NCBI GenBank assembly: GCA_965261735.1 | Contig: OZ253470.1 | Coordinates: 2,560,001 to 2,624,000 of the forward strand | DNA: 64,000 nt | Direction: 5' to 3' | Origin: Alphaproteobacteria bacterium | GTDB lineage: Bacteria; Pseudomonadota; Alphaproteobacteria; SHVV01 | Shown here: positions 4,771 through 41,343 of the stretch, one piece after another | How positions within the stretch are numbered: position 1 is the stretch's first letter | Layout: each line of letters begins with the position of its first letter | Program-made: the position numbers and the translations under genes | Notes under the pieces: generated by a model | What the model saw: only the letters and a program-made list of their open reading frames with translations | Database searches by the model: none | What the model was told of the DNA's origin: nothing

Positions 4771-5843
4771 GGGTGCTGCGCGGGCGCTCCGCCATGCCAG
4801 CCACGAACCATTGCTACGAGCTCGGCGACGTGCTCGGGCGGCGTGCCGGGCAAGATCCCGTGGCCGAGGTTGAAAATGAAGCGCCCACCGGCCAACGATT
4901 CGAGGATGTACGCGGCCTCACCTTGCATGGCGACGCCGCCCGCCAACAGGGCCACCGGGTCGAGGTTGCCCTGTACCGTGCAATACGGCTGCAGGTTGTG
5001 TGCCGCCCAGGGCGGCGAAACCGTGGTGTCAATGCCGATGCCGTCGACCCCGCTTTCCTCGACCAGCATGGCCAGCAGGGTCGCCGCACCGCGCGGGAAG
5101 GCGATCAGCGGGACATTTGGGTGGACGCTGCGAAAGCGGCGCGCGATGGTCGCAACGGGCTCGAGACACCAGCGCCGAAACGACCGTTCGGGTAGCATCC
5201 CCGCCCAGGTATCAAAGAGCTGCACGACATCGGCACCGGCATCGGCCTGCGCCACGAGATGGCGCACGGTTGCATCGACCAGCAAGTCGATCAGCGCCGC
5301 GAAGCCCTCCTCGTCGGCATAGGCCCAGCGCTTCGCGGACAACGCGTCCGCACCGCCGCGGCCCTCCACCATGTACGTCGCCACCGTCCATGGTGCACCG
5401 GCAAAGCCGATAAGCGCCGCCGACTCATCGAGCTCCGCCGCGAGCCGGCGCACGGTTTCGTATACCGGCGCTAGGTGGTCCTCGAGACGGGCCGCATCAA
5501 GCTGCGCCACGTCATCGCGCGAACGAATCGGCTCGAGCCGCGGGCCTTCGCCCTCGACAAAGCGCACCGGCTGTCCCAGTGCATCCGGCACCAGCAGGAT
5601 ATCAGCGAACAGAATGACCGCATCCAGATCGAAGCGGCGCAGCGGTTGCAGCGACACCTCCACCGCCAGGTCCGGCGTGTAGCACATATCGAGAAAGTCC
5701 CGAGCCCGGCCACGCAGCTCACGATATTCGGGCAGATATCTTCCGGCCTGGCGCATGAACCACACGGGCGGGCGATCGAGAACCTCGCCGCGCAGCGCCC
5801 TTACCAGGGGCAGCCCGCTCTGGTGGGATGGCCGTGGATTCAC
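4767..5843 (-). CDS. hemE: uroporphyrinogen decarboxylase
   Basis: PVWFMRQAGRYLPEY, GFAGAPWT, FNLGHGI. Confidence 0.96.
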   Translation of the reverse strand: MNPRPSHQSGLPLVRALRGEVLDRPPVWFMRQAGRYLPEYRELRGRARDFLDMCYTPDLAVEVSLQPLRRFDLDAVILFADILLVPDALGQPVRFVEGEGPRLEPIRSRDDVAQLDAARLEDHLAPVYETVRRLAAELDESAALIGFAGAPWTVATYMVEGRGGADALSAKRWAYADEEGFAALIDLLVDATVRHLVAQADAGADVVQLFDTWAGMLPERSFRRWCLEPVATIARRFRSVHPNVPLIAFPRGAATLLAMLVEESGVDGIGIDTTVSPPWAAHNLQPYCTVQGNLDPVALLAGGVAMQGEAAYILESLAGGRFIFNLGHGILPGTPPEHVAELVAMVRGWHGGAPAQHP

Positions 5844-6230
5844 TCGGGGGCTCAGGGGTTGACGCTGGGAAAGGCAACCATACTTTCACACCTAAACATA
5901 CTTTACTGTTTGTTGTAGTTGATAGTGAATGCCTGTGGACGTCGGGGATTACATTGTTTCCGCGAAGGATTAACAAGTCGCTGTGCGCAGGAGTGCGACG
6001 TTGGATGATCCGGTGTGCAAGCACGCCGATCGCGCAGGGTTCGGTGCCTCAAGCTCGCCAAGGAAAGCGTTGATTAGGTGCTGCGCGAGTGCTCTTGGGG
6101 CATTTATACCGGCCTGGGGACAGGCCGGCGCATCGTTTAACATCTGGAGGGCGGTTTTGCGCATCACCGGGACAATTGCGGGTGCCGACCGCCGCATCCT
6201 TACCTTATCCACATGTGTGCACGTGCTGAG
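5844..6230. other. probable chromosomal replication origin oriC
   Basis: hemE/ppsR(DUF299) intergenic position typical of alphaproteobacterial oriC; AT-rich tract ~5880-5930; perfect DnaA box TTATCCACA at 6205-6213. Confidence 0.8.
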
Positions 6231-6233
6231 GTC

Positions 6234-7046
6234 GTGACCCAGTTTAACCTCCATCTCGTCTCGGATTCGACGGGGGAGACCCTCAACGCGGTCGCCCGCG
6301 CCGCCATCACTCAGTTCGATGATGCGGAGCCGGTGGAGCACATGTGGTCGCTGGTAAGGACCCGCAAGCAGGTCGAGAAGGTGGTAGAGGCGATCGATGC
6401 GCAGCCCGGAATCGTCATGTTCACCATGGTCCGGCGCGATGTGCGTGACGTGCTCGAAGCCGGTTGTCGGCGTCTCGGCGTGCCCTGTATCGCCGTTCTC
6501 GATCCCGTGTTGACCACCATCGGCGGCTACCTCGGTGCCGAGAGCCTCGGTCGGCCCGGCCTGCAGCATTCCATGGATGCCGAGTATTTCGGGCGCATTA
6601 GCGCCATGGACTATTGCCTGGCGCACGACGATGGCCAGTCGCAGGTGAGCCTCAGGGATGCCGACGTGGTTCTCGTCGGTGTCTCGCGGACGTCGAAGAC
6701 GCCGACCTGCTTCTATCTCGCCAACCGCGGCGTGCGCGCGGCCAACGTACCCTTCGTTGCCGGGCATTCGCTGCCATTGGAGCTGGTCGGGCCCGGGGGG
6801 CCACTCGTCGTCGCGCTGACGGCGAGCCCCGAGCGACTCGTGCAGATTCGCCGCAACCGACTGTTGCAGCTCAGCCAAGCCGGCGATTCGAGTTACGCCG
6901 ATATCGAGGCGGTGAGGGCCGAGGTTGCCGAGGCACGCCGGCTCTTTGCGGCGCAGGGTTGGCTCGTGATCGACGTGACACGTCGTTCGATCGAGGAAAC
7001 CGCGGCGCGCATCCTGACCTACTGCGGACAGTGTGCCAGGACATGA
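6234..7046 (+). CDS. ppsR: pyruvate, water dikinase regulatory protein (kinase/pyrophosphorylase, DUF299)
   Basis: HLVSDSTGET, HDDG, GVSRTSKTP, RSIEETA; GTG start 6234 preferred over 6213. Confidence 0.93.
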   Translation: MTQFNLHLVSDSTGETLNAVARAAITQFDDAEPVEHMWSLVRTRKQVEKVVEAIDAQPGIVMFTMVRRDVRDVLEAGCRRLGVPCIAVLDPVLTTIGGYLGAESLGRPGLQHSMDAEYFGRISAMDYCLAHDDGQSQVSLRDADVVLVGVSRTSKTPTCFYLANRGVRAANVPFVAGHSLPLELVGPGGPLVVALTASPERLVQIRRNRLLQLSQAGDSSYADIEAVRAEVAEARRLFAAQGWLVIDVTRRSIEETAARILTYCGQCART

Positions 7047-7642
7047 GCGTGCCCGTCGTGTTGGCATCGGCGAGCCGTGCGCGCCAGGCGCTGTTGGCGC
7101 GCGCAGGGCTGGCGTTCGAGGCGGTCGCGGCGGCGATCGACGAGGCGGCGGCCATGGAGCGCGCGCGGGCCGAAGTACTCGATGCCGCCGCGCTCGCCGC
7201 GGGCCTCGCGGAATCCAAGGCGCGGGCGGTTGAGGCGGGGTGTGCGGGCAGCCTCGTGATCGGCGCCGATCAGGTGCTCGACGTCGATGGTGAATGGCTC
7301 GGCAAGCCGGCCGACAGGGCCGAGGCGCGGGCGCAGCTCGCGCTGCTGCGGGGCCGCGCTCACGACCTCCACACCGCCGTATGCCTGGTCCGCGATGCGG
7401 CCGTGACGTGGCGCCACCTCGATACCTCGCGGCTCACGATGAGGACCCTGAGCGACGCCTCGATCGAGCGTTACCTCGATGGCGCGCTCCCCGCGGCGCT
7501 GGGCTCGGTCGGCGCGTATCAGCTTGAAGGCCCCGGCGCCCAGCTCTTCAGCTTCGTCGAGGGGGACTTCTTTGCCATCCTCGGGCTGCCGCTCCTGCCT
7601 CTCCTCGAGGCGCTGCGCCAACAGGGAGCGGCGCCGCCATGA
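7043..7642 (+). CDS. maf: Maf-family nucleoside triphosphate pyrophosphatase
   Basis: VVLASASRAR, IGADQVL, GKP, GDFFAILGLPL; ATGA overlap with ppsR. Confidence 0.93.
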   Translation: MSVPVVLASASRARQALLARAGLAFEAVAAAIDEAAAMERARAEVLDAAALAAGLAESKARAVEAGCAGSLVIGADQVLDVDGEWLGKPADRAEARAQLALLRGRAHDLHTAVCLVRDAAVTWRHLDTSRLTMRTLSDASIERYLDGALPAALGSVGAYQLEGPGAQLFSFVEGDFFAILGLPLLPLLEALRQQGAAPP

Positions 7643-28342: not shown

Positions 28343-29170
28343 CTACTTGATGCGCTCGCGCTCCAACGTGCGCCACTTCGACAGTCTGCGCTCCGTATGC
28401 TGGACGAGCTGGGTCAGGGCGACGCCCATGAGGCCTACGATAATGATCGGCACGAACATCTTCGAGGTCGCGAACACGGCACCGTAATTGACGATCATCC
28501 CGCCGAGCCCGGAGATCGCCGTGAAGAACTCGGCCACGATCATTGCTGTGATGCCGAGCCCGACCGAGAGGCGAATGCCGGCCATCACGTAGGGCGTCGC
28601 GGCCGGAAGTGTGATCTTGAAGAAGATGTCGCTTTCGCTGGCGCCGAAGGCGCGGCCGATCTCCAGCAGCGAGCCGCGCACGTCCTTGATGCCGGCGTAG
28701 GTGTTGATGATCACGGGAAAGATCGCAATCGAAATGAGAATCGTTAGCTTGCCAGCGGTCTCCAGCCCGGCCCACAGGATGATGAGGGGCAGGAGCGCGA
28801 TCCGCGGAGTCACGTAGAGCGCGTTGACGAAAGGGTCGAGCGTGTATTCGATGAACCACCACTGGCCGAGCATCACGCCGAGCGCGATGCCGCCGACTAT
28901 CGAAACGGTCATTCCGACCGTAAACAGCAACAAGCTTTCCTTGAGCGCCACGGCGAGATCACCGCTCAGGATGACCTCCCAGGTCGCCACGAACACCTTT
29001 GTCGGCGAGCTGAGAAAGAGTGGGCTGACCGAACGCCCGAAGTACTCCCACGCGATGAAGAAGATAGCGACGACGACAACGCGGATCAGGTTGGGATGCA
29101 GGCGCAGGAAGCGAACCGCCGCCGCGCCCGGGCTTAGTTCCCGGCCTGCGACCGGTTCCCTGCTAGCCAT
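28343..29170 (-). CDS. ABC transporter permease (SsuC/TauC-like)
   Basis: six TM segments, EAA-like loop EIGRAFGAS, LPAATPYVMAGIR, AEFF. Confidence 0.9.
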   Translation of the reverse strand: MASREPVAGRELSPGAAAVRFLRLHPNLIRVVVVAIFFIAWEYFGRSVSPLFLSSPTKVFVATWEVILSGDLAVALKESLLLFTVGMTVSIVGGIALGVMLGQWWFIEYTLDPFVNALYVTPRIALLPLIILWAGLETAGKLTILISIAIFPVIINTYAGIKDVRGSLLEIGRAFGASESDIFFKITLPAATPYVMAGIRLSVGLGITAMIVAEFFTAISGLGGMIVNYGAVFATSKMFVPIIIVGLMGVALTQLVQHTERRLSKWRTLERERIK

Positions 29171-29200
29171 CGGGCGGCGGCCGGCCCGCGATGCCGCTAC

Positions 29201-29368
29201 CTAGGCGGCTTCGATGTGACGGATCGCGCCGCCCTCGGCGCCGAGCGCCTTGACCCGCTCCTGATCGTACATGTCCTGCCAGAAGCGATAGGAGAAGGTG
29301 CTGACGCCCTGCGTCTGGATCGGCGGCAGATCGAGGGCGATCGCATCGCCCGCCAGATAGACCTCCTC
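29201..29368 (-). pseudogene. 3' fragment of an unknown gene upstream of the permease
   Basis: GC3-rich coding-like tail (EEVYLAGD...RHIEAA*) abruptly joined to IS-derived sequence at ~29369. Confidence 0.5.
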
Positions 29369-29483: not shown

Positions 29484-30026
29484 CGAATTAGAGATCGGCT
29501 TTTCCATGCGAGGACCCGCAGCGCGGCCAGGGTAGAGGGCCCCACTTACGTAGGGTCCGAGCGTTGTCGGATTTCGTCGTGTTGTCGCGCGACAAAATAC
29601 AGAAGGTGATTGTCGAACCTCTCATCTGGAGCTGAATAGCCTCCATATCACGCCCAAAACAGTGGCAGGGGGCAAGGCGTCGGGTAGGGGTCTGTCGAGA
29701 ACACTCTTGCAACGTCGTTTGGGTTAATGCCCTGAGGACTCAAATCCGTGGCAACCTCGTCGGCATGGGGAAACCGCCTTTGTCCCGGGGCTTATAAAGG
29801 AAGCTTGACAGAGCGTGACCCATTCGTGGGGAGGTGTCTCAGTTTGAAATATGGCGAGGCTGGCTTGGGAATGGGCCATGCATTTCAGTTGATTTCAGTT
29901 GATTTTAAGTGAGTCTAGGTGCGATCGTGTAGCCGGGCGTGAGGCCCTAATCATCGACGAGGGAGGATCGACCATGGACATGTTGAACTGGGGCGAGCGA
30001 CTGCCCGACGCGGAACGGCTCTAGCC

Positions 30027-30248
30027 GTGCCTAAGGGGCCACAGGGCCGGCGGCGCCCTGCCGACGTGATCGGTGCCGTCCACGTCGCCAGGATCGCTAC
30101 GGGCGAAATCGAAGAGGCGCCACCAAACGAAGCCGCCAAAGTGCGAGCGGGTCAGGCCGGTGCGCGCGTGCGCGCGGCGTCCCTAACGCCGGATGAGCGT
30201 GGCGCGATCGCACGCCGCGCCGCAGCTGCACGATGGACAAGAGAATGA
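30027..30248 (+). CDS. small basic protein of the PKGP...RPADVIG family, usually found beside IS1-like DDE transposases
   Basis: MPKGPQGRRRPADVIG...IATGEIEE...RAASLTPDERGAIARRAAAARW. Confidence 0.7.
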   Translation: MPKGPQGRRRPADVIGAVHVARIATGEIEEAPPNEAAKVRAGQAGARVRAASLTPDERGAIARRAAAARWTRE

Positions 30249-30526
30249 CGATGCCAAAGAAGGGTGCGGAGTGGGTCCTGCATAACTTCCACTTCGACGG
30301 CTCTATTCTGGAAAAGGCCTTGGATTCTTGGGGCAGTGCGGGTGATGTCCATGTGAGCTTCCATGTCTTCAGGTATCCGAAATCTGCGCATCTCCATGAT
30401 TGGAACCGTGTGGGAGAAAGCCTGTATGGTGCGATAGGGGCTTACGATGAACCAAGAATCGAACGGAGAGAAGAAGGCCCGGGAGAGCAAAGAGGGTCCA
30501 AATCAAGCCTCGTTGCAGCCCGCTGA
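30245..30526 (+). CDS. hypothetical protein upstream of DUF2335 gene
   Basis: ATGA overlap with preceding ORF; DWNRVGESL segment. Confidence 0.45.
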   Translation: MTMPKKGAEWVLHNFHFDGSILEKALDSWGSAGDVHVSFHVFRYPKSAHLHDWNRVGESLYGAIGAYDEPRIERREEGPGEQRGSKSSLVAAR

Positions 30527-30918
30527 CCAGGAAGAAGTTCTCCCTCCCGAAGTCCTTGACGCCCTTCCAGAAAACTTACGTTCGGTAGCTATCCGGGCTG
30601 CGTAGTTTAGAGGCCCCCTTCCGCCTCCGACGATGTTCTCCGCCTACGAGGAAAGCCTTCCTGGCGCTGCTGAGCGCCTGTTCAGGATGGCCGAAAAAGA
30701 GCAAGACCATCGGATATCGTGGGAACAAGGCGCCCTGCAAGGATCGCACGACACGACGAGACGCGGTCAGTGGCTAGGCTTTGCCATGTCAATCTTTGGC
30801 AGGTTTCATTGCCATGAATGGCGCCACAATCGTGGGTGCGCTGATTGCAGGCGGGAGCTTCATTGGCCTGCTGAGATCGCTTATCAAAATTTTAATTGAT
30901 AAAAATGCTGACAGATAG
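30447..30918 (+). pseudogene. DUF2335 membrane protein pseudogene
   Basis: FRGPLPPP...YEESLPGAAERLFRMAEKEQDHR motif; in-frame TAG at 30603-30605 and a frameshift near 30795. Confidence 0.75.
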
Positions 30919-30960
30919 CTTTTCCTGCTTATCCGTGACACTCCGCCTATGGGGATGTAT

Positions 30961-30975
30961 GTTCTCAATATGTTC
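30961..30975 (+). promoter_or_regulatory. LexA (SOS) box upstream of IS1595 transposase
   Basis: GTTC-TCAATAT-GTTC matches alphaproteobacterial GTTC-N7-GTTC. Confidence 0.7.
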
Positions 30976-30995
30976 TGTATGAGGGGGTCACGGTT

Positions 30996-31931
30996 ATGGG
31001 GTTCAAGGTTGCATCGCGCGTGCGTGGTCTGAACGACGAGGCGTTTCGGGAGGCCTTCGGCACCAAGGAGCAGTGCCGCGCGGCGCTGGTCCGGCTGCGC
31101 TGGCCGGGCGGCTTCGTCTGCCCCTGCTGCGGCCATCGGGAGCATTGCGTGTTGGCGGGTCGGGGTCTCTATCAATGCAACCGGTGCAAGAAGCAGACAT
31201 CGCCCACGGCGGGCACGATCTTCCACGCGACCAAGCTGCCGCTGACAGTCTGGTTTGCCGCCATCCACCTGATCGTGACGGCGAAGAACGGCATCTCGTC
31301 GGTGGAACTCGGCCGCCGTCTCGGGGTCAAGCAGCCGACGGCCTGGGCCGTGAAGCACAAGATCATGGCGGTGATGGCGCGGCGCGAGGGGGAGACGGCG
31401 CTTACGGGGCGGGTCGAGATGGACGACGCCTATCTCGGCGGGGTGCGCTCCGGCGGCAAGCGGGGCCGCGGCGCGGCGGGCAAAACGCCCTTCGTGGCGG
31501 CGGTCTCGACCAGTCCCGAGGGGCGCCCGCGCAAGCTGAAGCTGGCGCCGGTCAAGGGCTTCCGCAAGCGCGAGATCGCGCGCGGCGCCAAGCACTGGCT
31601 GGCCCCCGGCGCGGCGGTTGTGACGGACCGCCTGGGCTGCTGGAGCGCACTCGAAGAAGCCGCCTGCAGCCACCAGGCGATCCGCACCGGGTCGGGCCGC
31701 CAGGCGGCCCGCATGGCATCGTTCAAATGGGTGAACACGACGCTCGGCAACATCAAGAGCGCGATCACCGGGACTTATCGCAAGCTCGGCCCCGACCATG
31801 CCGGACGCTATCTCGCCAGCTTCGCCTGGCGCTACAACCGGCGCTATCAACTCCAGACAATGATCCCGCGTTTCGTCCATAGCGCCGCACGAAACCAGCC
31901 CATGCCCTATCGCCTCCTCATCGCCGGATGA
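30996..31931 (+). CDS. IS1595 family transposase
   Basis: RWPGGFVCPCC zinc ribbon, TAGTIF, VEMDD, GKRGRGA, VVTD, RYNRR. Confidence 0.94.
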   Translation: MGFKVASRVRGLNDEAFREAFGTKEQCRAALVRLRWPGGFVCPCCGHREHCVLAGRGLYQCNRCKKQTSPTAGTIFHATKLPLTVWFAAIHLIVTAKNGISSVELGRRLGVKQPTAWAVKHKIMAVMARREGETALTGRVEMDDAYLGGVRSGGKRGRGAAGKTPFVAAVSTSPEGRPRKLKLAPVKGFRKREIARGAKHWLAPGAAVVTDRLGCWSALEEAACSHQAIRTGSGRQAARMASFKWVNTTLGNIKSAITGTYRKLGPDHAGRYLASFAWRYNRRYQLQTMIPRFVHSAARNQPMPYRLLIAG

Positions 31932-32086
31932 CTTTCAGGGATAAGCAGGTAGCTTTTTGCCCTTATATCAGCTGCGGCAGGGCGCCTGGACCAGCGCGTA
32001 ATGCTGCATGTTCTGTCAAGCTTTCTTTGTAAGCCCCTTTGTCCCTGTCGATAGGGAGAGGAGTTCGTCAAGTTCGGAATGTGTAG

Positions 32087-33428
32087 ATGCCTAGGGCTTT
32101 GGCGGGAACCGACTTGGCCTGTATGGTGCCGCCGGCTATGGCTGTGACGCACACATCGCCGTTTCCAAGCGTATTGGCCGCTGTCCTCGAGCGCGACGGC
32201 ATAGCGCTCCCAGGGCACAGGGCGGAGCACGCGATCGCGTGCTTCAATCCCCACCACCGGGATGACGCGGCGATGTCAATGCGGATCGACACCGTGCGGG
32301 GGGGCTACCGCTGCTACGGGTGCGGTATCCGTGGGAACTCCTGGACCTATCTGACCCGGATAAGGGGCCTCGAGCCAAGGGCCGCCGAGGCGCTGCTTAC
32401 GGAGCTGGGCTGGCCCGAAGAGCTATTCCGCGTGTCCCACGTCTGGCTCGAGGAACAGGAGCGCGTGAAATCGGGTGCGGCCAAGTAACATGGACGAGCC
32501 CTGCATGACGGTCGGCGGATGCAACGGCGTGCCCCTGGCCAGAGCCATCGCCAAGCATGTCTACCGGCTCGCTAGTGGGAGCCTGGTATGCTTGCGCTTG
32601 AGGTACGAGGCCATTCACAGACGCATCCCGAAGTGCTTGACGTTCACGCCTTCCCACAGGGGCGGCTGGTGGGAGGCGCTTCCGAACAGCACCGCTGTAC
32701 CGTCCGAGGACCGGCACGGGGGCGGACTACCGCTCTATCGCCTTCCCGAGCTCTTGAAGGCTATCGAGGGCAACGACCGGGAGATTTGGATCGTCGCGGA
32801 CGAGAGGTGCGTCGATGCCGTTCTGGCGCTGCCGGACACAGACTTTTCCAAGGACGGAAAGGTCCCCGTCACATGCCTGTTCGGCGACTACCGGGGAAAA
32901 CCCGGACAATGCGACCTCGCTCCACTGCGGGGCCGAAGGTGCCTTCTGATCGCCGACACCGACACCAGAGACCGGAACGCCGTGCTGGCGACCGCGCGGG
33001 CGCTAGCGAAGCTCGATTGCGGTATCCGGCTTTGCCTGCCTGACGGCGAAGGCGGCTACGGCGTTGCCGATGCCATCGCCGAGGGCGGCTACCGGAACAT
33101 GATCGCCTGGATACGGAATGCGGGCATCCATCAGTTCCGCTGTGGCCCAACGCTACCGGCCGTCGCGGCTTACCTCGAAGACCTTCCGGCCGGACAGTGG
33201 GTCGTCGATCCCGCCGACCTCTACGCTGCCGCCGGCGTCGAGAAACGCCCGGATCGTCACACTGTTGCTTTGATCCGCGAGACCGCCGTTTCGACGGGCT
33301 GGGAATTCCGGCGGGTAAAGCGCAAGCCGTTCCGGGACCGGGCGATGTTCGTCCGGAAGGGAGCGAAACCGAAAGGACTACCCCGAGGGCGCCCGTTTGC
33401 GCTGATCGCCACCCACGCAAGCCTATGA
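32087..33428 (+). pseudogene. CHC2 zinc finger plus degenerate TOPRIM primase-like gene, split at 32486-32489
   Basis: CFNPHH...CYGC in ORF 32087-32488; PLYRLP...IVADERCVD...LIADTD in ORF 32490-33428; removing one A in AAGTAACATG fuses them. Confidence 0.65.
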
Positions 33429-33739
33429 TATTCCTGTAGTCCCGCGCTGATGGGCACCTCGGCATTAGCCAGTTGCTCTATTCCGGGAGCGCCTCGGATC
33501 CAGGCAAACAGAGGCAAAAATGGCCGATTCTTACTGGTCTCTTGAGGCGAGGGTGATCGGCGTCGGAGATTGCCGTCCGATTTGGAGTGCAAAGGTGATC
33601 ACTCTGATTGGGACATCCCGGTCGTCAATAGGGGACCCGCGCGGCTTCGTGTGGCGCCCTGCGACATGTGAGCGAGGCCGTGTGGGAGTGCCTCGACCCA
33701 CCGGGGCAACCGGGCCGCAGGGACCGCCGGCGGCGCGTC

Positions 33740-33860
33740 AGGAGCGGTTCTTGAAGCGCCAGCTCTCGTTGCCGGTTTCGATGATCTCGCAATGATGGGT
33801 CGGGTGGTCGAGTAAGGCCTGGTGATCTTGGGGTCGTCGAAAACACTCTTGCCCACGATC
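33740..33860 (-). pseudogene. IS21-family IstB C-terminal remnant
   Basis: SVFDDPKIT / ALLDHPTHHCEIIETGNESWRFKNRS* with a frameshift. Confidence 0.75.
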
Positions 33861-34234
33861 GACTGATATGGCCCACGAACGCCGCTCGCAAGAGGAAACT
33901 CCTGGGGTTTGGCGTTCTAGCTAACCTCGACTTGTGCCAGCGCGGGGCGATCGGGTGCCTTTCTCCATCGCCAAGCACCAAATCGGCAGCCCGTATGTTG
34001 GGCCGCGCGCCCAATACAAGACCGCCTCGCGGGAACAAGCGGGAACCCTCGCATAGCTGCTTTGGTTGTTTGGCGACCGGCCCGGCATCCCACCGGCGAC
34101 ATCGGCGGGTGATAGATCGTAGATCGATCGTACCGCGGGCCTCCTAGAGATTGGTCGGAAGGTCATCCGTATCTGGCACGACCAGAGGCTTGACTTCCTC
34201 GCTGGACAGACCGCCGCCGTTTTCCATGACCTCA

Positions 34235-36129
34235 GCACGTTTCTCGACATCGTCTGATGCACCGTTTTCTGTAGAGGGGGGATTCGTAGCCGCCACAACG
34301 CCACAACCGTTGCCCACAGCGGAGTTCAGCGATTTCCCATCCGCCACACGATCGGGGCTTGTGGCGGATACGGAATCACCAAACCCCGCGCTCACCTTGA
34401 GTTGTGGCGTTGTGGCGGATGGTTTTGGGGGGTCTTCGGAAGAAGGGATGTCATAGCGTTTCCAGGCCGGCTCAAAGGCAGCGCGCTTGTACCCCTTCGG
34501 CGTCGCGCCGCCATTCACGCGTATCGTGCTGGGAGCGATCCCGAAGCTCTTAAGCAGCGTCGCCAGGCCGCGCGGCGACAGCGGTTTGCCGCGTGACCAT
34601 TCGGACCAGGGGACGCGCTACCGGCGACCTCGACGTGCGACAGCGCGGGCTTCGATTTTATGATCGCGGATAACGGGGCGTACTAGAAATCGGTCGGATA
34701 GTCCGCATTCGGTTCGTCACCGTCGTGCCCCGTGATCGTCGCGCGTTTCTCGACATCGTCTGATGCACCGTTTCCTGTAGAGGGGGGATTCGTAGCCGCC
34801 ACAACGCCACAACCGTTGCCCACAGCGGAGTTCAGCGATTTCCCATCCGCCACACGGTCGGGGCTTGTGGCGGATACGGAATCACCAAACCCCGCGCTCA
34901 CCTTGAGTTGTGGCGTTGTGGCGGATGGTTTTGGGGGGTCTTCGGAAGAAGGGATGTCATAGCGTTTCCAGACCGGCTCAAAGGCAGCGCGCTTGTACCC
35001 CTTCGGCGTCGCGCCGCCATTCACGCGTATCGTGCTGGGAGCGATCCCGAAGCTCTTAAGCAGCGTCGCCAGGCCGCGCGGCGACAGCGGTTTGCCGCGT
35101 GACCATTCGGACCAGGGGACGCGCTACCGGCGACCTCGACGTGCGACAGCGCGGGCTTCGATTTTATGATCGCGGATAACGGGGCGTACTAGAAATCGGT
35201 CGGATAGTCCGCATTCGGTTCGTCACCGTCGTGCCCCGTGATCGCCGCGCGTTTCTCGACATCGTCTGATGCACCGTTTCCTGTAGAGGGGGGATTCGTA
35301 GCCGCCACAACGCCACAACCGTTGCCCACAGCGGAGTTCAGCGATTTCCCATCCGCCACACGGTCGGGGCTTGTGGCGGATACGGAATCACCAAACCCCG
35401 CGCTCACCTTGAGTTGTGGCGTTGTGGCGGATGGTTTTGGGGGGTCTTCGGAAGAAGGGATGTCATAGCGTTTCCAGACCGGCTCAAAGGCAGCGCGCTT
35501 GTACCCCTTCGGCGTCGCGCCGCCATTCACGCGTATCGTGCTGGGAGCGATCCCGAAGCTCTTAAGCAGCGTCGCCAGGCCGCGCGGCGACAGCGGTTTG
35601 CCGCGTGACCATTCGGACCAGGGGACGCGCTACCGGCGACCTCGACGTGCGACAGCGCGGGCTTCGATTTTATGATCGCGGATAACGGGGCGTACTAGAA
35701 ATCGGTCGGATAGTCCGCATTCGGTTCGTCACCGTCGTGCCCCGTGATCGCCGCGCGTTTCTCGACATCGTCTGATGCACCGTTTCCTGTAGAGGGGGGA
35801 TTCGTAGCCGCCACAACGCCACAACCGTTGCCCACAGCGGAGTTCAGCGATTTCCCATCCGCCACACGGTCGGGGCTTGTGGCGGATACGGAATCACCAA
35901 ACCCCGCGCTCACCTTGAGTTGTGGCGTTGTGGCGGATGGTTTTGGGGGGTCTTCGGAAGAAGGGATGTCATAGCGTTTCCAGACCGGCTCAAAGGCAGC
36001 GCGCTTGTACCCCTTCGGCGTTGCGCCGCCATTCACGCGTATCGTGCTGGGAGCGATCCCGAAGCTCTTAAGCAGCGTCGCCAGGCCGCGCGGCGACAGC
36101 GGTTTGCCGCGTGACCATTCGGACCAGGG
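34235..36129. repeat. 506-bp tandem repeat (3 full units plus 1 partial) of the Rep 3' end and putative origin
   Basis: units 34612-35117, 35118-35623, 35624-36129 and partial 34235-34611; near-identical with a few SNPs. Confidence 0.95.
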
Positions 36130-37935
36130 TCGGTCCTCCATAGTAACCAGGGCCGGTAGGATGGCGGGCTCTAGCGAGATTTGGGCCACATCGGGCTTGC
36201 CGGTTGGCAGGTGAGCGGGGTCGCCGGCGCCGCGGAATACTTGCCATAGGTCGGCAAGCAGCATTTCACGGGCACCGGTCTCAGATTCAGCGGACGCGTT
36301 GATCGCCTCGCAGGCTCGATATGCCCGGCCCGTTCCTCCAGCCCACTCGCCACCGGCAACCTCGCCGATCGCCAACAGGGCTTCCCAGGCGTCGCGGGTC
36401 CGGTCGTTCAGGACGGGTGGGAAGGCGACGGCGTTGCGGCGCTCCAGGACGGCGTCGCCGTCGTCGGCGATCCACCGGGCGAGCTTGCAGTTCAAATCCG
36501 CGATGGCTTGCTCGTCTCGGTCTCGCCAGCGCGGGAGATCGCCGACGTTGGGCGCACGACGCTCCAACCTAATCAGCAATGAGCGATCAAGGACGGTGTC
36601 GTGCAGGCTGCCGATCCCGCTTATCACCTTTGCGCACCAGATCCCAAAGAGGCGCGGTTCGTAATTGTCGCCCACCGTGCGCATGACATATGCCAAGTCG
36701 CGACGTTGGGAACCGTTGACGAGGCCTCTCAACTCCTTATCATCGCCCAAGAAGGTATCGGCTTCATCGAGTAGCAGCGTCGGCGCGTATAGTTCGATAG
36801 TGCGGAACAGGGCCGCCGGCGTGATTCTTCCGGAGGCAGCCAGCGGCTTGCACACCAGGGCGACAAGAACCTCCATCAACAGAGACTTGCCGCAACGCTT
36901 GGTTGCGCTCGTGATGTTCAAGAAGGTCGATATCTTGAGCCGGTCGTGCATCCATGTGTGGACAACCCACAGCGCCGCGGCGTCGGCCGACGTCTCGGGC
37001 ATGTCCACATAGCGCCGGATCAGCTCGGCAATGGCGTCGAGCAGCGCAGCACCGTCGACCGGGCCGGGCCAGGGTTCGACCTCGTCCCACTGTAGAGGCT
37101 GGCCTTGCAAACCGTCGCTATCCCTGCTCTCGGTGGCGGCCATGGCAGCTTTAAGGTCGCCGATCATGACCTTGGCTTCCCGCAGTTTGCGGAGTAGCCG
37201 TTGCCATTCGGCGGCGTTGTCGCGCCGAAGTTCCGCCAGCCTCGCCGGCATATCCGGCTCGAATGGCGCACCGGGATCGCTCTTGGCGCGCTCAGCAAGC
37301 TCATCCTTCCAGTCCATCGGCGTCCACTGCTTCGCTCCGGCTTCGATCCGTTCGCGAACATCGTCGGCGCCATCCGCCTCGATCCAGTCGAAGATGTCCT
37401 TTCCGTCGTCGCCCTCCGGTAGGTAGATGCGCACCTTGCATCCGAGCGAGTGGAGATGCTGGGCGAGAGCCTCCATCGCCTTGCGTCCGGGATCATCGGC
37501 GTCTGCGACCAACAGCACTTCTCGGCCCGCGAGCGGTTGCCAGTTCGTCCTATTCAGGGCTCTGCACCCGCCGGACCATGTAATGACGAGTTGGAACGCA
37601 AAAGCGTCGTGGGCACCGTCAGCGCACTTCTCACCCTCGACCACGACGACGGGGCCGGCGGACTTGGGGATGTCGGGGAGCCTGTAAAGCGGGCGCGGCG
37701 CAGGCATGCCCTTGAGCCTCCACTTGGAGCCATCCCAGGTCGCGGGACGGATGACCTTGTCGTCGTCAGGATCCTTGGGCAGCCACCGCGCCACATAGAA
37801 GGCAACGCCGCCTTCCGCCGTAGGGTAGGTCGAGATCTTCACCGGATCGCCGATGGCTTCCTGCGGTCGCAATTTGTCCCAATCCGGGGCGGGCGCGTCT
37901 GGCGGAACAGGACTGACCGGTCTGTAATCGGTCAT
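35695..37935 (-). CDS. replication protein: TOPRIM primase plus ATPase/DUF3631 domain
   Basis: VVEGEKCAD and VADAD TOPRIM motifs; SATKRCGKS Walker A, LLLDEAD Walker B; ATGA overlap with upstream ORF. Confidence 0.87.
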   Translation of the reverse strand: MTDYRPVSPVPPDAPAPDWDKLRPQEAIGDPVKISTYPTAEGGVAFYVARWLPKDPDDDKVIRPATWDGSKWRLKGMPAPRPLYRLPDIPKSAGPVVVVEGEKCADGAHDAFAFQLVITWSGGCRALNRTNWQPLAGREVLLVADADDPGRKAMEALAQHLHSLGCKVRIYLPEGDDGKDIFDWIEADGADDVRERIEAGAKQWTPMDWKDELAERAKSDPGAPFEPDMPARLAELRRDNAAEWQRLLRKLREAKVMIGDLKAAMAATESRDSDGLQGQPLQWDEVEPWPGPVDGAALLDAIAELIRRYVDMPETSADAAALWVVHTWMHDRLKISTFLNITSATKRCGKSLLMEVLVALVCKPLAASGRITPAALFRTIELYAPTLLLDEADTFLGDDKELRGLVNGSQRRDLAYVMRTVGDNYEPRLFGIWCAKVISGIGSLHDTVLDRSLLIRLERRAPNVGDLPRWRDRDEQAIADLNCKLARWIADDGDAVLERRNAVAFPPVLNDRTRDAWEALLAIGEVAGGEWAGGTGRAYRACEAINASAESETGAREMLLADLWQVFRGAGDPAHLPTGKPDVAQISLEPAILPALVTMEDRPWSEWSRGKPLSPRGLATLLKSFGIAPSTIRVNGGATPKGYKRAAFEPVWKRYDIPSSEDPPKPSATTPQLKVSAGFGDSVSATSPDRVADGKSLNSAVGNGCGVVAATNPPSTGNGASDDVEKRAAITGHDGDEPNADYPTDF
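35808..35936. other. putative element origin: mirrored CGCCACA iterons (same block in each repeat unit)
   Basis: 18-bp inverted repeat CCGCCACAACGCCACAAC / GTTGTGGCGTTGTGGCGG enclosing 10-bp inverted repeat ATCCGCCACA-N11-TGTGGCGGAT. Confidence 0.65.
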
Positions 37936-38336
37936 GGCGCCACCCGGAGCATTTCGGCGAGCTTGCGCGCAGCTTCGACTTGCGACAGATCGAACAGATA
38001 CGCGGCAAGGCTGATCGGATCGCCGCCCCTGGCATCGCTCAGGGCGAAGTCGGCCCAGCGGCCGGTTTCCAGGTTCACCTTGAACGAGCCGGTATGGCGG
38101 TCCGCGCGGAGCCGGTTCAGCGCGACCCACTCCCGGCCTTCTCGTCGGCCGCCCGGGAGCCAGCCCATGACTAGCGCCGGGAGACAAGCGAGCGCGGCCG
38201 CGTTGACTGCAGCGAAGTCCGGTCCCGCCTTGTTGCGGGCGCGGGCTACGGTTGTAGAATCAACTCGTGAGTATCGAGAGACACTACGCGCCGTTCCGGC
38301 TTCCCGTGCCGGACGGCGCTTCCATTTCCGGCGCAT
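37932..38336 (-). CDS. primase N-terminal-like accessory protein
   Basis: WLPGGRREGREW...GSFKVNLETGRWADFA...GGDPISLAAYL; zinc-binding-domain-like segment without Cys ligands. Confidence 0.7.
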   Translation of the reverse strand: MRRKWKRRPAREAGTARSVSRYSRVDSTTVARARNKAGPDFAAVNAAALACLPALVMGWLPGGRREGREWVALNRLRADRHTGSFKVNLETGRWADFALSDARGGDPISLAAYLFDLSQVEAARKLAEMLRVAP

Positions 38337-38339
38337 GCG

Positions 38340-38588
38340 TCATGCCCTGCCCGGGGCCTTTGGATCGGCGATAGGCCGCGACTCGATCCATTTCTGGATA
38401 TCTGACAGGCGCCAAGCGACTGCGCCTCTCGGGCCGCTGCCGATGCGGACGGGACGTGGAAACCAGCCTTGGTCCATCTTCGCGTAAATGGCTGCGCAAC
38501 TCATGGCGGTCATCGCCTCGACTTCGGGCCGACGCAGCAACCGGTCAAGAGTGTTCGAGGGTGGTTTCGTAAAGGATGCGGTTTTCAT
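38340..38588 (-). CDS. alpA: AlpA family regulator/excisionase
   Basis: RLLRRPEV...IYAKMDQGWFPRPVRIG...VAWRLSDIQKWI. Confidence 0.9.
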   Translation of the reverse strand: MKTASFTKPPSNTLDRLLRRPEVEAMTAMSCAAIYAKMDQGWFPRPVRIGSGPRGAVAWRLSDIQKWIESRPIADPKAPGRA

Positions 38589-38696
38589 TGTGCGACTCCG
38601 TTTCTTGGAAATCGCTACCCATTATTGGCATTTCGCAAGAGTTCGCAGGATGATAAATCGCATTTATCCTCACAAGGAGGGCACGGGCGCCGGTGT

Positions 38697-39599
38697 TCAG
38701 TTCAGGGTGCGGCCCTGTTCTCGCCAGCGTCGCAGAATGGCTCGTATCTGCACAACAATTGCGCTTACCCGGTCCTGCTCGCGCCAGCGTTCCAGCATGG
38801 CCGGCCCTAGCGCAACACCGTTTTCCTTGTCCTTGGTCGGCTCCCACACTGATCTTGCCGTCTCGTACGAGAAGTCCCCGTCTCCGTTCTGCTGAAATGC
38901 AAGCGTCACGGCGTCCAAAATTGACTTGTGCCGAGGAGCGCTTTTGCGGGTTGGGTCCATGCCCGTTAGGTAGGCGAGGTGCGCGACGGTGTAGTTGATG
39001 CGCCTGTCGCGCAACCAGTTCTTCGTCGGCGGCCCCTTACCACCGTAGCGGGGCAGGTTCTCAAACCGGGACTTTGCAGAACGCGCGCGGAGCTCACGTG
39101 GGAGAGGCTCACCCTCTAGATCGAACAGCCCCAAGAGAGCACGGAGAACAAGCTCCCCCTCATAAACTTCCTGCTTGGCATTTAGAAGAAGACTTGAACA
39201 ATGCAGGCAGCCGCCATTGCAGTAGATCTCAAACAGCAATTCGGCGAAGCTTTGGACCAAAACCAGATCTTCGGGTGGCACACTGTCGAAACGGGGGCGG
39301 TTCTTACTGTTGAGCGCGGAACCATCGCGCATACTCTTGTCGAATAGGAGGTTTTCTGCCGCCTTTACCATTTTATCGAAGTCGAAGGCGCGACCCATGC
39401 GACCGGCGGTGACGGGCGGGCTCCCTTTCTGTGAGGTTTCCCGGCCCCACAGGTCGGCGCTTGTAGCGCCGTCGGGATGCGCGTCGGAAATGCTCTCTAA
39501 AAGCGCGTCGTCATCATCCTGATATCTACGAACGAAAGCATCCTGCTTCGCTTGCAGAGCCGCCGTGTGTGGGCGGCAGGAGCATTCCGGGCTATTCAT
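38697..39599 (-). CDS. hypothetical protein (300 aa) between integrase and alpA
   Basis: long ORF in lower-GC DNA; its start overlaps the integrase stop in the reconstructed empty site. Confidence 0.6.
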   Translation of the reverse strand: MNSPECSCRPHTAALQAKQDAFVRRYQDDDDALLESISDAHPDGATSADLWGRETSQKGSPPVTAGRMGRAFDFDKMVKAAENLLFDKSMRDGSALNSKNRPRFDSVPPEDLVLVQSFAELLFEIYCNGGCLHCSSLLLNAKQEVYEGELVLRALLGLFDLEGEPLPRELRARSAKSRFENLPRYGGKGPPTKNWLRDRRINYTVAHLAYLTGMDPTRKSAPRHKSILDAVTLAFQQNGDGDFSYETARSVWEPTKDKENGVALGPAMLERWREQDRVSAIVVQIRAILRRWREQGRTLN

Positions 39600-39600
39600 G

Positions 39601-39987
39601 GGGGCTTATCCACGTAGCTTGACAAGGAACTTACATACCTAATGCCAAACCCCTAGGAGGGAGCTATGGCTGACGCAACATCCTCTCAGCCAACTCAACA
39701 AGGCTCTTTCCAATTTCCAGAGCCTCTTCAGCCGGAAGAAGAATGGTTAGAGCTTTATGATGCTCGGTTTTATCTTCTGGAAAATCAAGACGTACCGACT
39801 TTTGTATTCCATGTGGCAGCTTCGCGGTTGTGGCGGCCGTGACCTGGATTTTGCCCATAACTCACTCCTCTCTGTATCAATCCCCATATGCGTACCAGCG
39901 GGCGGAGCGCTCATGCTAGCTGTACAGGGCGCCTGGACCAGGCAGGTAGTTGCTGCGGGTTCTTGTCAAGCTTTCTTTGTAAGCCCC
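39601..39987. mobile_element. non-autonomous insertion cassette 2 (387 bp)
   Basis: TIRs GGGGCTTATCCACGTAGCTTGACAAG and GGGGCTTACAAAGAAAGCTTGACAAG; 8-bp TSD TATTCATG at 39593-39600 and 39988-39995. Confidence 0.9.
39664..39858 (-). CDS. 64-aa passenger protein of cassette 2, unknown function
   Basis: GAGGAG RBS upstream of ATG; lies wholly within the TIRs. Confidence 0.65.
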   Translation of the reverse strand: MGKIQVTAATTAKLPHGIQKSVRLDFPEDKTEHHKALTILLPAEEALEIGKSLVELAERMLRQP

Positions 39988-41195
39988 TATTCATGCGCCC
40001 GGACCATCGACACGACACACCCGGTGCCGCCTTCCAGATAGCCCGCCCATTGGTCCATGAGCCTGCGGCGGCGCTCGAACAGGTCCGTCCGGTTGTAGGC
40101 TCGCTCCACTTTGTTGCGGACGGTATGCGCCAGCGCCGCCTCCGCGACAGCAGGGGGAGCGTTGGCCCGTTCCGCCGCCCAATCGCGGAAGCTCGATCGG
40201 AAGCCATGCGGCACGGCTTCGATGTTCAGGTCGCGCATAAGCTTCGATAGCGTCAGGTCCGCAAGCGGTTTGCCGGCCCGTGTGCCGGGGAAGACAAGAC
40301 CGCTCGCGGCTTCCAGCGCCCTCGCTTCGGCGAGAATCTGCACGGCACGGGCGCACAGCGGGACCCGGTGTTCCTGCTTTGCCTTCATCCGCTCAGCCGG
40401 AACTGTCCAGGTGCGTGCATCAGTGTCGATTTCTTCCCAAGTCGCAAGCCGGACTTCGCCCGAGCGCGCGGCTGTCAAAACCAGAAACTCGAACGCCAGC
40501 TTGACAGCCATCCCGGCACCGGACCCCCGCACCGCCTCGATGGCGTCTGCAACCTTGGCATGGAGCAACGCCGCGTGATGGCGCTTGCCGTTGTCGGTCT
40601 TCGGCAGGGCCGCGCCGAGGGCCTCTCCTGCCGGATTATCGGTCCGGTGGCCTTGCGCGATGGCCCATTTCATGATCGTGCCGATCCGCTGGCGGACGCG
40701 CCTCGCGGTTTCCGGCTTTTCGGTCCAGATGGGTAGGAGAGCCGCCATCACGTCCTTGGTGTCGATGTCCGAGACCGGACGCTTGCCCAAGCGAGGGAAG
40801 GCATACTCGCGAAGCGTCGAGTCCCACTGTGCTGCGTGCTTCGCATTGCGCCAGCCTGACCGATGGATCGCGATCACGGTCCGTGCCGCTTCCTCGAAGG
40901 TAGGCACCTCGGACTTGCGCTTGTGAGCCAGCGGATCGCCACCCTGCCGGGCGAGTTTCCGATTATGAAAGGCTGCCTCTCGGGCTTCGGCCAGTGACAC
41001 CAGCGGGAAGCCGCCCAGGCCAAGCTCGCGCCGGCGTCCCCGGATGACTAGACGCTGCACCCACTGCCGCGAGCCGGAAGGCTGCACCGCGAGATAGAGC
41101 CCGTTGTCGTCGCAGTAGAGCTTCGTTCGGGTTTCCGGCTTCACGGTCTCGACGAAACGGGCCGAGAGCCCGCGTTTGAGCTTTCGCTCTGTCAA
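39987..41195 (-). CDS. P4-like tyrosine integrase with arm-binding domain
   Basis: GLYLAV...LGGFPLVSLAEAR arm domain; AARSGE, MKAK, HGFR, LAH, AY catalytic residues. Confidence 0.95.
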   Translation of the reverse strand: MTERKLKRGLSARFVETVKPETRTKLYCDDNGLYLAVQPSGSRQWVQRLVIRGRRRELGLGGFPLVSLAEAREAAFHNRKLARQGGDPLAHKRKSEVPTFEEAARTVIAIHRSGWRNAKHAAQWDSTLREYAFPRLGKRPVSDIDTKDVMAALLPIWTEKPETARRVRQRIGTIMKWAIAQGHRTDNPAGEALGAALPKTDNGKRHHAALLHAKVADAIEAVRGSGAGMAVKLAFEFLVLTAARSGEVRLATWEEIDTDARTWTVPAERMKAKQEHRVPLCARAVQILAEARALEAASGLVFPGTRAGKPLADLTLSKLMRDLNIEAVPHGFRSSFRDWAAERANAPPAVAEAALAHTVRNKVERAYNRTDLFERRRRLMDQWAGYLEGGTGCVVSMVRAHE

Positions 41196-41278
41196 TGTCC
41201 GTCTCCACCATTATACCCATCTTATTTGATGGGAACGTACAGGAACGGAGAGGGCCGGTCAAGAACGATGGAAACATT

Positions 41279-41291
41279 CAACATATTGATA
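41279..41291 (-). promoter_or_regulatory. IHF-like binding site in att arm
   Basis: CAACATATTGATA matches YAANNNNTTGATW, in an AT-rich arm. Confidence 0.6.
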
Positions 41292-41343
41292 TTTATATAT
41301 TAAATTGAATATATGAGAATTGTTGAGAATGGTAATAGGCGGA

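Follow-up and report, generated by a model that had tools for sequence, protein, structure and literature searches.

The 64 000-nt stretch of DNA analysed here (the window) comprises bases 2,560,001–2,624,000 of the single 5.03-Mb contig of an alphaproteobacterial genome (G000). It contains two short elements, cassette A (2251 bp, 29787–32037) and cassette B (387 bp, 39601–39987), which are very probably non-autonomous derivatives of the IS1595 family of insertion sequences (IS), in which ends and short subterminal modules enclose unrelated passengers instead of a transposase. Judged by their sequence, A and B are mobile insertion cassettes (MICs), B being of the size of a miniature inverted-repeat transposable element (MITE), and they were most likely mobilised in trans by a transposase of the type encoded by two passenger-carrying elements of the same genome, T1773 and T3171.

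Terminal repeats and target duplications

The end pattern GGGGCTTA-N7-AGCTTGACA had exactly four matches in the window, at 29787–29810 (+), 32014–32037 (−), 39601–39624 (+) and 39964–39987 (−), and was matched in 0/100 dinucleotide-preserving shuffles of the window. The four copies form two inverted pairs, which delimit A and B, and vary in their middle seven positions. Direct reading, checked by script, gave a perfect (8/8) target duplication for each pair, namely TTTGTCCC at 29779–29786 and 32038–32045 for A and TATTCATG at 39593–39600 and 39988–39995 for B. Both the pattern search and the direct reading thus confirmed the two inverted pairs of 24-bp ends with perfect 8-bp duplications described in an initial annotation of the window. 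The left and right terminal inverted repeats of A agree at 22/24 positions. The right repeats of A and B are identical (24/24), and the further similarity that had been noted between these ends amounts to 87% identity over 63 nt. The right repeat of B and the left end of T1773 have 22/24 positions in common; the left repeat of B is the most divergent end, with 18/24 against the right repeat of B and 16/24 against the left end of T1773. Positions 4–11 of this left end, GCTTATCC, are also positions 4–11 of the end of an IS nested in A, as had been observed before.

Related elements in the same genome

A search of the whole genome with a relaxed end pattern returned 27 ends, which form 11 pairs and five solo ends, the latter having no mate within 12 kb at up to seven mismatches. 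The wider search for paired copies that the initial annotation had proposed was therefore productive: a perfect 8/8 duplication flanks eight pairs, A, B, T1773 and T3171 among them, while two pairs have 7/8 and one has none. A-runs make the boundary of the two 7/8 pairs ambiguous, and the pair without a duplication is a 949-bp element. The duplications are 75% A+T (48/64 bases, binomial 3e-11) in a genome of 65.7% G+C, so this lineage prefers AT-rich targets.

Two of the 11 pairs enclose intact IS1595-family transposase genes and provide the autonomous transposase between the same ends that had been proposed as a search target. T1773 (1773 bp, duplication CATCGAAA) encodes a transposase of 324–331 aa and carries an unrelated 196-aa open reading frame (ORF) as passenger. 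T3171 (3171 bp, duplication TGTTTTTG, L043, G000:1127636–1130806) encodes a transposase of 324 aa, 76% identical to that of T1773, and carries a 488-aa type II methyltransferase-HNH fusion and a 191-aa ORF as passengers. In both elements the order is left end, transposase, passenger, right end, and the passenger reads inward from the right end. Of the 24 positions in the right repeats of A and B, the left end of T1773 matches 22 and that of T3171 matches 21, and no similarity between T1773 or T3171 and either cassette was found beyond the 24-nt repeat.

The traits of the IS1595 lineage are a DDE transposase with an N-terminal zinc ribbon, repeats of approximately 24 bp starting GGGG(C/A)TTA, and 8-bp duplications in AT-rich sites; 8 bp is the duplication length given for the family in ISfinder. 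The T1773 transposase (L001:552–1547) matches PF12762 (DDE_Tnp_IS1595, 6.3e-41) and PF12760 (zinc ribbon, 1.7e-08), so T1773 and T3171 display the DDE_Tnp_IS1595 domain, the N-terminal zinc ribbon and the 8-bp duplications. With transposases of this kind lying between near-identical ends, the earlier assignment of the cassette ends to the IS1595 type was borne out. Five further copies or fragments of the T1773 transposase lineage are present in the genome (43–80% identity), and the ends of six transposase-bearing copies start GGG(G/A)(A/C)TTA(C/T). In an alignment of seven transposases the T1773 lineage conserves D, D and E, plus K seven residues after E. The ISNwi1-type subgroup of IS1595 is characterised by a short end motif, a D-D-E-K signature and members with passenger genes; these ends, the signature and the passengers would fit that description, and T1773 and T3171 may belong to the subgroup. 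Among 8000 scored candidate homologues of the T1773-type transposase, 7999 had E ≤ 1e-30 and the top match was 96% identical; none of the best 120 of the 8000 carries a name, and database matches located on plasmids are annotated ‘IS1595 family transposase’.

The other nine pairs are without transposase. They measure 172 bp (four copies), 387 bp (B), 446 bp, 739 bp, 949 bp and 2251 bp (A). The 172-bp element is free of coding sequence and its four copies, at four different sites, are 99–100% identical, which indicates that ends of this type recently moved in this genome without an internal transposase. A, B and all of the cargos are each single-copy. With G+C contents of 48.9% for B and 57.8% for A in the 65.7% G+C genome, the cargo is compositionally foreign.

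Empty sites

Related empty sites, which the initial annotation had suggested looking for, were found for both cassettes. One such site for B is a paralogous integrase locus of the same genome, in which both flanks are contiguous around a single CTATTCATG; the left flank aligns at 71% over 152 nt and the right flank at 82% over 137 nt, with 9 nt common to both alignments. In addition, one contig from the public run X12 joins position 39591 to 39987, skipping 395 nt (387 + 8), with 9 letters that fit either side. By our own reading the paralogous locus is approximately 79% and 93% alike near the junction, and the X12 joint probably does not derive from it; the joint is taken as supportive, not decisive. 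Run X18, in which the interior is without cover and the left flank is present, was considered as a further empty site and was not counted, its joint being imprecise (39478 to 39987, side 20). For A, homologues of both flanks abut in a genome of another genus of the same family (G001), where 29690–29784 aligns to L058 932–1009 (score 43, the highest of 200 shuffles being 34) and 32042–32200 aligns to L058 1006–1160.

The integrase gene and the 300-aa gene that flank B (window 38600–41300) have diverged paralogues in the genome (2499969–2500713), where the homologues directly adjoin each other, and several copies in the related genome G002; the island type itself is therefore multi-copy.

Cassette B and its cargo gene

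Cassette B lies in the 8-bp overlap of two host island genes outside the cassette, those of a P4-type tyrosine integrase directly upstream (39987–41195, −; PF22022, PF13356, PF00589) and of a 300-aa protein directly downstream (38697–39599, −). Its duplication recreates both gene borders, since the right copy includes the last bases of the integrase gene with most of its stop codon and the left copy includes the start codon of the 300-aa gene.

No transposase match was found inside B by tblastn. Two almost fully overlapping ORFs lie on opposite strands, each with a Shine-Dalgarno-like sequence: one of 64 aa (39664–39858, −), with GAGAGGAG upstream, and one of 58 aa (39666–39842, +), which is followed by a terminator-like hairpin at 39822–39842. 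An exhaustive HMMER search of 1.84 billion representatives returned one full-length homologue of the 64-aa protein (P0001, 66 aa, 69–71% identity, E 3.5e-17), which is encoded on a 13.4-kb metagenome contig, the two proteins differing by an in-frame two-residue indel. The recognition score of the language model (Atlas) was 2712 for the 64-aa ORF and 2002 for the opposite-strand ORF, and the position of the 64-aa ORF next to the right end corresponds to that of the passengers in T1773 and T3171. On the strength of the homologue, the higher score and the passenger slot, the 64-aa ORF is predicted to be the real gene of B, and the 58-aa ORF is probably not a gene. The product had been described as a 64-aa orphan; it stands as a gene of B, with P0001 as its one homologue.

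A word-indexed search found no homologue of either ORF, and with the query used none of 400 further genomes of the class yielded the 64-aa gene. The 64-aa protein had no match in Pfam, PHROG or PADLOC, and Atlas searches with both ORFs gave no match of at least 0.9 that carries a family. Its AlphaFold model, three strands followed by a helix, is poor (mean pLDDT 60).

Cassette A and its nested IS

A search of A with the T1773 transposase (tblastn) gave a sole match, at 27% identity, to a nested IS of a different IS1595-family lineage; A has no transposase of its own lineage. The nested IS (30924–31949, +, 1026 bp) has its own 8-bp duplication, TAGCTTTT, at 30916–30923 and 31950–31957, and an intact transposase gene (30996–31931, 311 aa, IS1595-family). 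What had been annotated as nested IS pieces is actually this one complete element. The genome contains 15 full-length copies, of which 10 are at least 99.5% identical, and this IS would be very active at present. Without the nested IS and its duplication, A measures 1217 bp.

The cargo of A consists of a basic 73-aa ORF (30027–30248, +) with no family match other than a weak one to phrog_2384 (E 0.005), a 97-aa ORF (30233–30526, +) with no family match, and a gene for a DUF2335 or phage moron-type membrane protein (30447–30899, +; PF10097, 1.9e-11; phrog_3996, 7e-15). When the small cargo ORFs were searched in PADLOC and PHROGs, nothing apart from these DUF2335 and phrog_2384 matches was obtained. 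The DUF2335 domain is in an 88-aa ORF (30633–30899), which an in-frame TAG at 30603–30605 parts from a 52-aa ORF in the same frame, and the gene is therefore possibly decayed. A frameshift in this gene was suspected, checked and not confirmed. A is situated in the same integrase- and primase-bearing island as B, with approximately 50 bp between it and a downstream gene that encodes a DnaG-type zinc finger (primase-like).

End modules and relatives in other genomes

Inside the right repeat, A (31970–32013) and B (39901–39963) have a subterminal module that also occurs in the 949-bp element and in one from another alphaproteobacterial metagenome-assembled genome (MAG). Over 63–88 nt, A, B and the 949-bp element are 83–91% identical at this end (91% over 69 nt for A and the 949-bp element), and the module has the invariant core CTGG-N-CCAGGC-N-CCC. 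On the left side, A and the 949-bp element also share 30 nt. An RNA structure in the right module was considered and dropped, as there was no Rfam match and 0/15 predicted pairs showed a compensatory change. The module may be a protein-binding site or simply reflect shared ancestry.

The cargo, by contrast with the modules, differs from member to member. In an all-against-all blastp comparison of cargo ORFs of at least 40 aa there was no cross match between A and B at E ≤ 0.01, in agreement with the initial description of their cargo as unrelated, and the cargo ORFs of A, B, the 949-, 446- and 739-bp elements and the element in the other alphaproteobacterial MAG (L025) showed no mutual similarity. 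The cargo is swappable in the sense proposed earlier, members with common end modules carrying different cargo. A lack of other paired copies or empty sites, or simple internal deletion of a catalogued IS with no variable cargo, had been named in advance as speaking against a family of mobile cassettes; further pairs, empty sites and variable cargo were all found.

The genome collection was scanned with 17 fixed bases over 596 billion bases, for which approximately 70 chance matches are expected by our own estimate. Singletons among the 27 loci obtained are therefore not evidence, and only clustered or paired hits with duplications were used. They include 11 further pairs with perfect 8-bp duplications, mostly MITEs of 150–295 bp. 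L025 contains a 460-bp element with both modules and a different interior, and in the related genus G002 the right module accompanies a degenerate end. An element of a Rhodospirillaceae MAG (L031) combines small ORFs and a methyltransferase-HNH gene related to the T3171 passenger with the left module (91% over 68 nt), and a Latescibacterota MAG (L022) has a 2216-bp transposase-less element (duplication AAAAAAAA) with the same kind of gene. Neither the right module nor the exact end type had any match when metagenome contigs were scanned.

The methyltransferase-HNH passenger recurs at L043, L031 5086–6515 and L022 2318–4533, with and without transposase, its hosts being an alphaproteobacterium, the Rhodospirillaceae MAG and the Latescibacterota MAG. 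The L031 element (4825–7519) has a double right end, in which a complete repeat ends at 7488 and is followed by 23 nt like the tip of the 172-bp MITE repeat; the duplication TAATTTAA, matching 4825–4832, comes only after those 23 nt. An assignment of the left end of B to the same type as the far end of the L031 element was dropped because the two agree at 16/24 positions only. In one Alphaproteobacteria MAG (L017, L019, L020, L030, L037, L041) a single 8-bp target, CTTCGATA or, in complement, TATCGAAG, recurs as the insertion site of MITEs of this end type, which in L017 lie back to back (255–521, then 530–648); this clustering suggests either a preferred target or insertion into another repeat.

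Promoters and cargo expression

The inward-facing TTGACA that had been recorded at each end is part of the terminal repeat and so is necessarily present at both ends. It is followed after 16–17 nt by a −10 hexamer in 5/5 examined ends of transposase-bearing relatives (TATCTT or TATATT before the transposase gene, CATGAT before the passenger), against 0/17 ends of transposase-less elements. A transposase promoter partly inside the left repeat is a familiar arrangement. At L001 2221–2273 and L043 3619–3671 CATGAT immediately precedes the passenger ORF, whose start lies at position 53 counted from the right tip, and the passenger message of T1773 and T3171 would be leaderless or nearly leaderless.

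A consensus scan of A and B returned no sigma-70-type site that uses the TTGACA of the end, and in several cassettes the first ATG is only 28–42 nt after it, too close for that hexamer to serve a message dependent on a ribosome-binding site. The built-in promoters proposed as a possibility in the initial annotation were accordingly not recovered. Given the missing −10 hexamers and the close ATG, the cassette genes would probably depend on read-through or other signals. From the right end, the 64-aa gene of B is read into the cassette, co-oriented with the integrase and 300-aa genes on either side, so that read-through from the island operon would be its likeliest source of expression.

In the left module the repeat precedes a Shine-Dalgarno sequence and ATG at positions 52–66; in the right module a 40–65-nt block that includes the invariant core precedes a Shine-Dalgarno sequence and an ATG facing inward. 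It is a speculative and rather improbable idea that these conserved modules are portable adaptors rather than leftovers, plugging orphan small genes into a transposase-driven gene-cassette system. Were it true, any two ends could capture and express new cargo, including the methyltransferase-HNH gene seen in members from three phyla, and the system would functionally be the transposon counterpart of integron cassettes.

Mobilisation in trans and alternative explanations

In the proposed mechanism, a transposase from an autonomous relative elsewhere in the genome, for which T1773 and T3171 are the best candidates, would bind the two ends, move whatever lies between them and insert it with an 8-bp staggered cut. 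B would in this way have landed in the 8-bp overlap between the integrase gene and the next island gene, and A some 50 bp upstream of the primase-like gene of the same island, where the nested IS would later have hit it. Several points weigh against this account. Transposition itself was not observed, and we infer the acting transposase, its action in trans and the expression of the cargo from sequence. A and B are each single-copy, so neither has been shown to have moved more than once, and the left end of B agrees with that of T1773 at only 16/24 positions. No transposase-bearing element with the same right module was found in this genome, and tblastn of the 27 loci of the collection scan with two transposases gave nothing at 1e-5. 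As to the empty sites, the left-flank alignment for A is weak (43 against 34), and the X12 joint is a single contig at a 90% likeness threshold, of a kind that repeats or other organisms can also yield.

That the inverted repeats are a chance or structural feature of immobile DNA is extremely improbable in view of the shuffles, the two perfect 8-bp duplications, the 11 pairs in the genome and the related empty sites. Decay in situ is a less remote alternative, though an unlikely one: an autonomous IS with a passenger would have arrived at the present site and there lost its transposase gene through an internal deletion, with no movement in trans at any time. The layout of T1773 and T3171 speaks for it, because the 64-aa gene of B is in the same right-end slot and simple deletion of the transposase from such a parent would give B, as does the single copy of each cassette. 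It is plausible that B arose by transposase loss from a passenger-carrying parent, of which none was found. However, there is no transposase remnant inside A or B, the 172-bp member clearly spread without a transposase, and the same modules are found around different cargo in elements without a transposase both here and in another MAG, a recurrence that fits propagation as transposase-less units. Decay in situ moreover concerns the last step only and leaves the cassettes IS1595-family derivatives.

There is also little to commend the transposase of the abundant nested-type IS (ends CCTGCTTATCC...) as the one that moved the cassettes, in place of the T1773/T3171 lineage. With the copies described above it is the most recently active IS seen, it likewise makes 8-bp duplications, and it has GCTTATCC at positions 4–11 in common with the left end of B. 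Its three terminal bases, however, are CCT instead of GGG, its internal GTGACA block is at a different distance from the tip, and its transposase, which shares only 27% identity with the T1773 enzyme, carries N in place of E as the third catalytic residue. The ends of T1773 and T3171 agree with the cassette ends at 21–22/24 positions. This alternative is very improbable, and mobilisation by a T1773/T3171-type transposase remains the preferred explanation.

Relation to known elements

Transporter IS (tIS) of the IS1595 family, copies with passenger genes, were reportedly described by Siguier, Gagnevin and Chandler in 2009. T1773 and T3171 are of tIS type; A and B have the same transposase family, end type and 8-bp duplication as tIS, and differ from them in having no transposase gene of that lineage. 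As defined in the pertinent passages of PMC3129680, MITEs, MICs and passenger-carrying tIS are established categories, and a passage of PMC7986276 also defines the tIS. A and B are new examples of an already described kind of element and imply no new mechanism. They combine IS-type repeats at both ends and no transposase of their own with at least one passenger coding sequence, namely the 64-aa ORF of B with its 69–71% identical full-length homologue and the DUF2335/phrog_3996 ORF of A.

MICs were first described as MIC231, derived from IS231, in the Bacillus cereus group (De Palmenaer et al. 2004, as cited in the relevant passage of PMC3129680). Such MICs, as far as that passage describes them, resemble A and B in their IS-type inverted repeats around passenger genes, missing transposase, parent-typical duplications and variable cargo. 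A and B differ in their parent family (IS1595, not IS4/IS231), their 8-bp duplications and their occurrence in Alphaproteobacteria and other Gram-negative hosts, and in being known from sequence alone. An IS1595-family MITE, a 165-bp ISHwa6-derived element of Haloquadratum walsbyi, is listed with IR 25 and DR 8 in Table 4 of PMC3852290. Its counterpart here is the 172-bp element (four copies), both being non-autonomous IS1595-family derivatives; going by that table, the ISHwa6 derivative is non-coding and archaeal, whereas A and B carry ORFs. The 172-bp relative is a MITE in the sense of a short, non-coding, multi-copy element, whereas B is coding and single-copy and A is 2251 bp long. Integron gene cassettes resemble A and B as small promoterless units of swappable single genes, but they are recombined site-specifically at attC/attI by an integrase and have neither terminal inverted repeats nor target duplications; no integron-type recombination features were seen in A or B. 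Coding MICs of the IS1595 family were not found described in the literature search, outside which lay supplements, ISfinder and the 2009 tIS paper, and no priority is claimed.

The analysis gives an annotation to two unannotated mobile units and their relatives. To our knowledge, transposition of the IS1595 family has been little studied experimentally, and coding transposase-less derivatives beside likely helper elements in one genome offer a natural system for the study of trans-mobilisation and end requirements. The relatives in other genomes suggest that small orphan genes and the methyltransferase-HNH gene travel between distant bacteria on minimal vehicles.

Other features of the window and host genome

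To the left of A, window positions 28800–29367 (568 bp) have a 100% identical duplicate at genome positions 3085196–3085763. Between the cassettes, a tandem repeat at 34214–36240 consists of four copies with a 506-bp period and 96–100% identity. It overlaps the 3′ part of an 830-aa DUF3631/Toprim primase gene (35695–38187) and was missed by Tandem Repeats Finder, in which the period limit is 500. The host genome has 181 distinct loci with an IS1595-family transposase match of at least 200 aa, an extreme load for 5.03 Mb, which suggests that the genome is in a phase of IS expansion.

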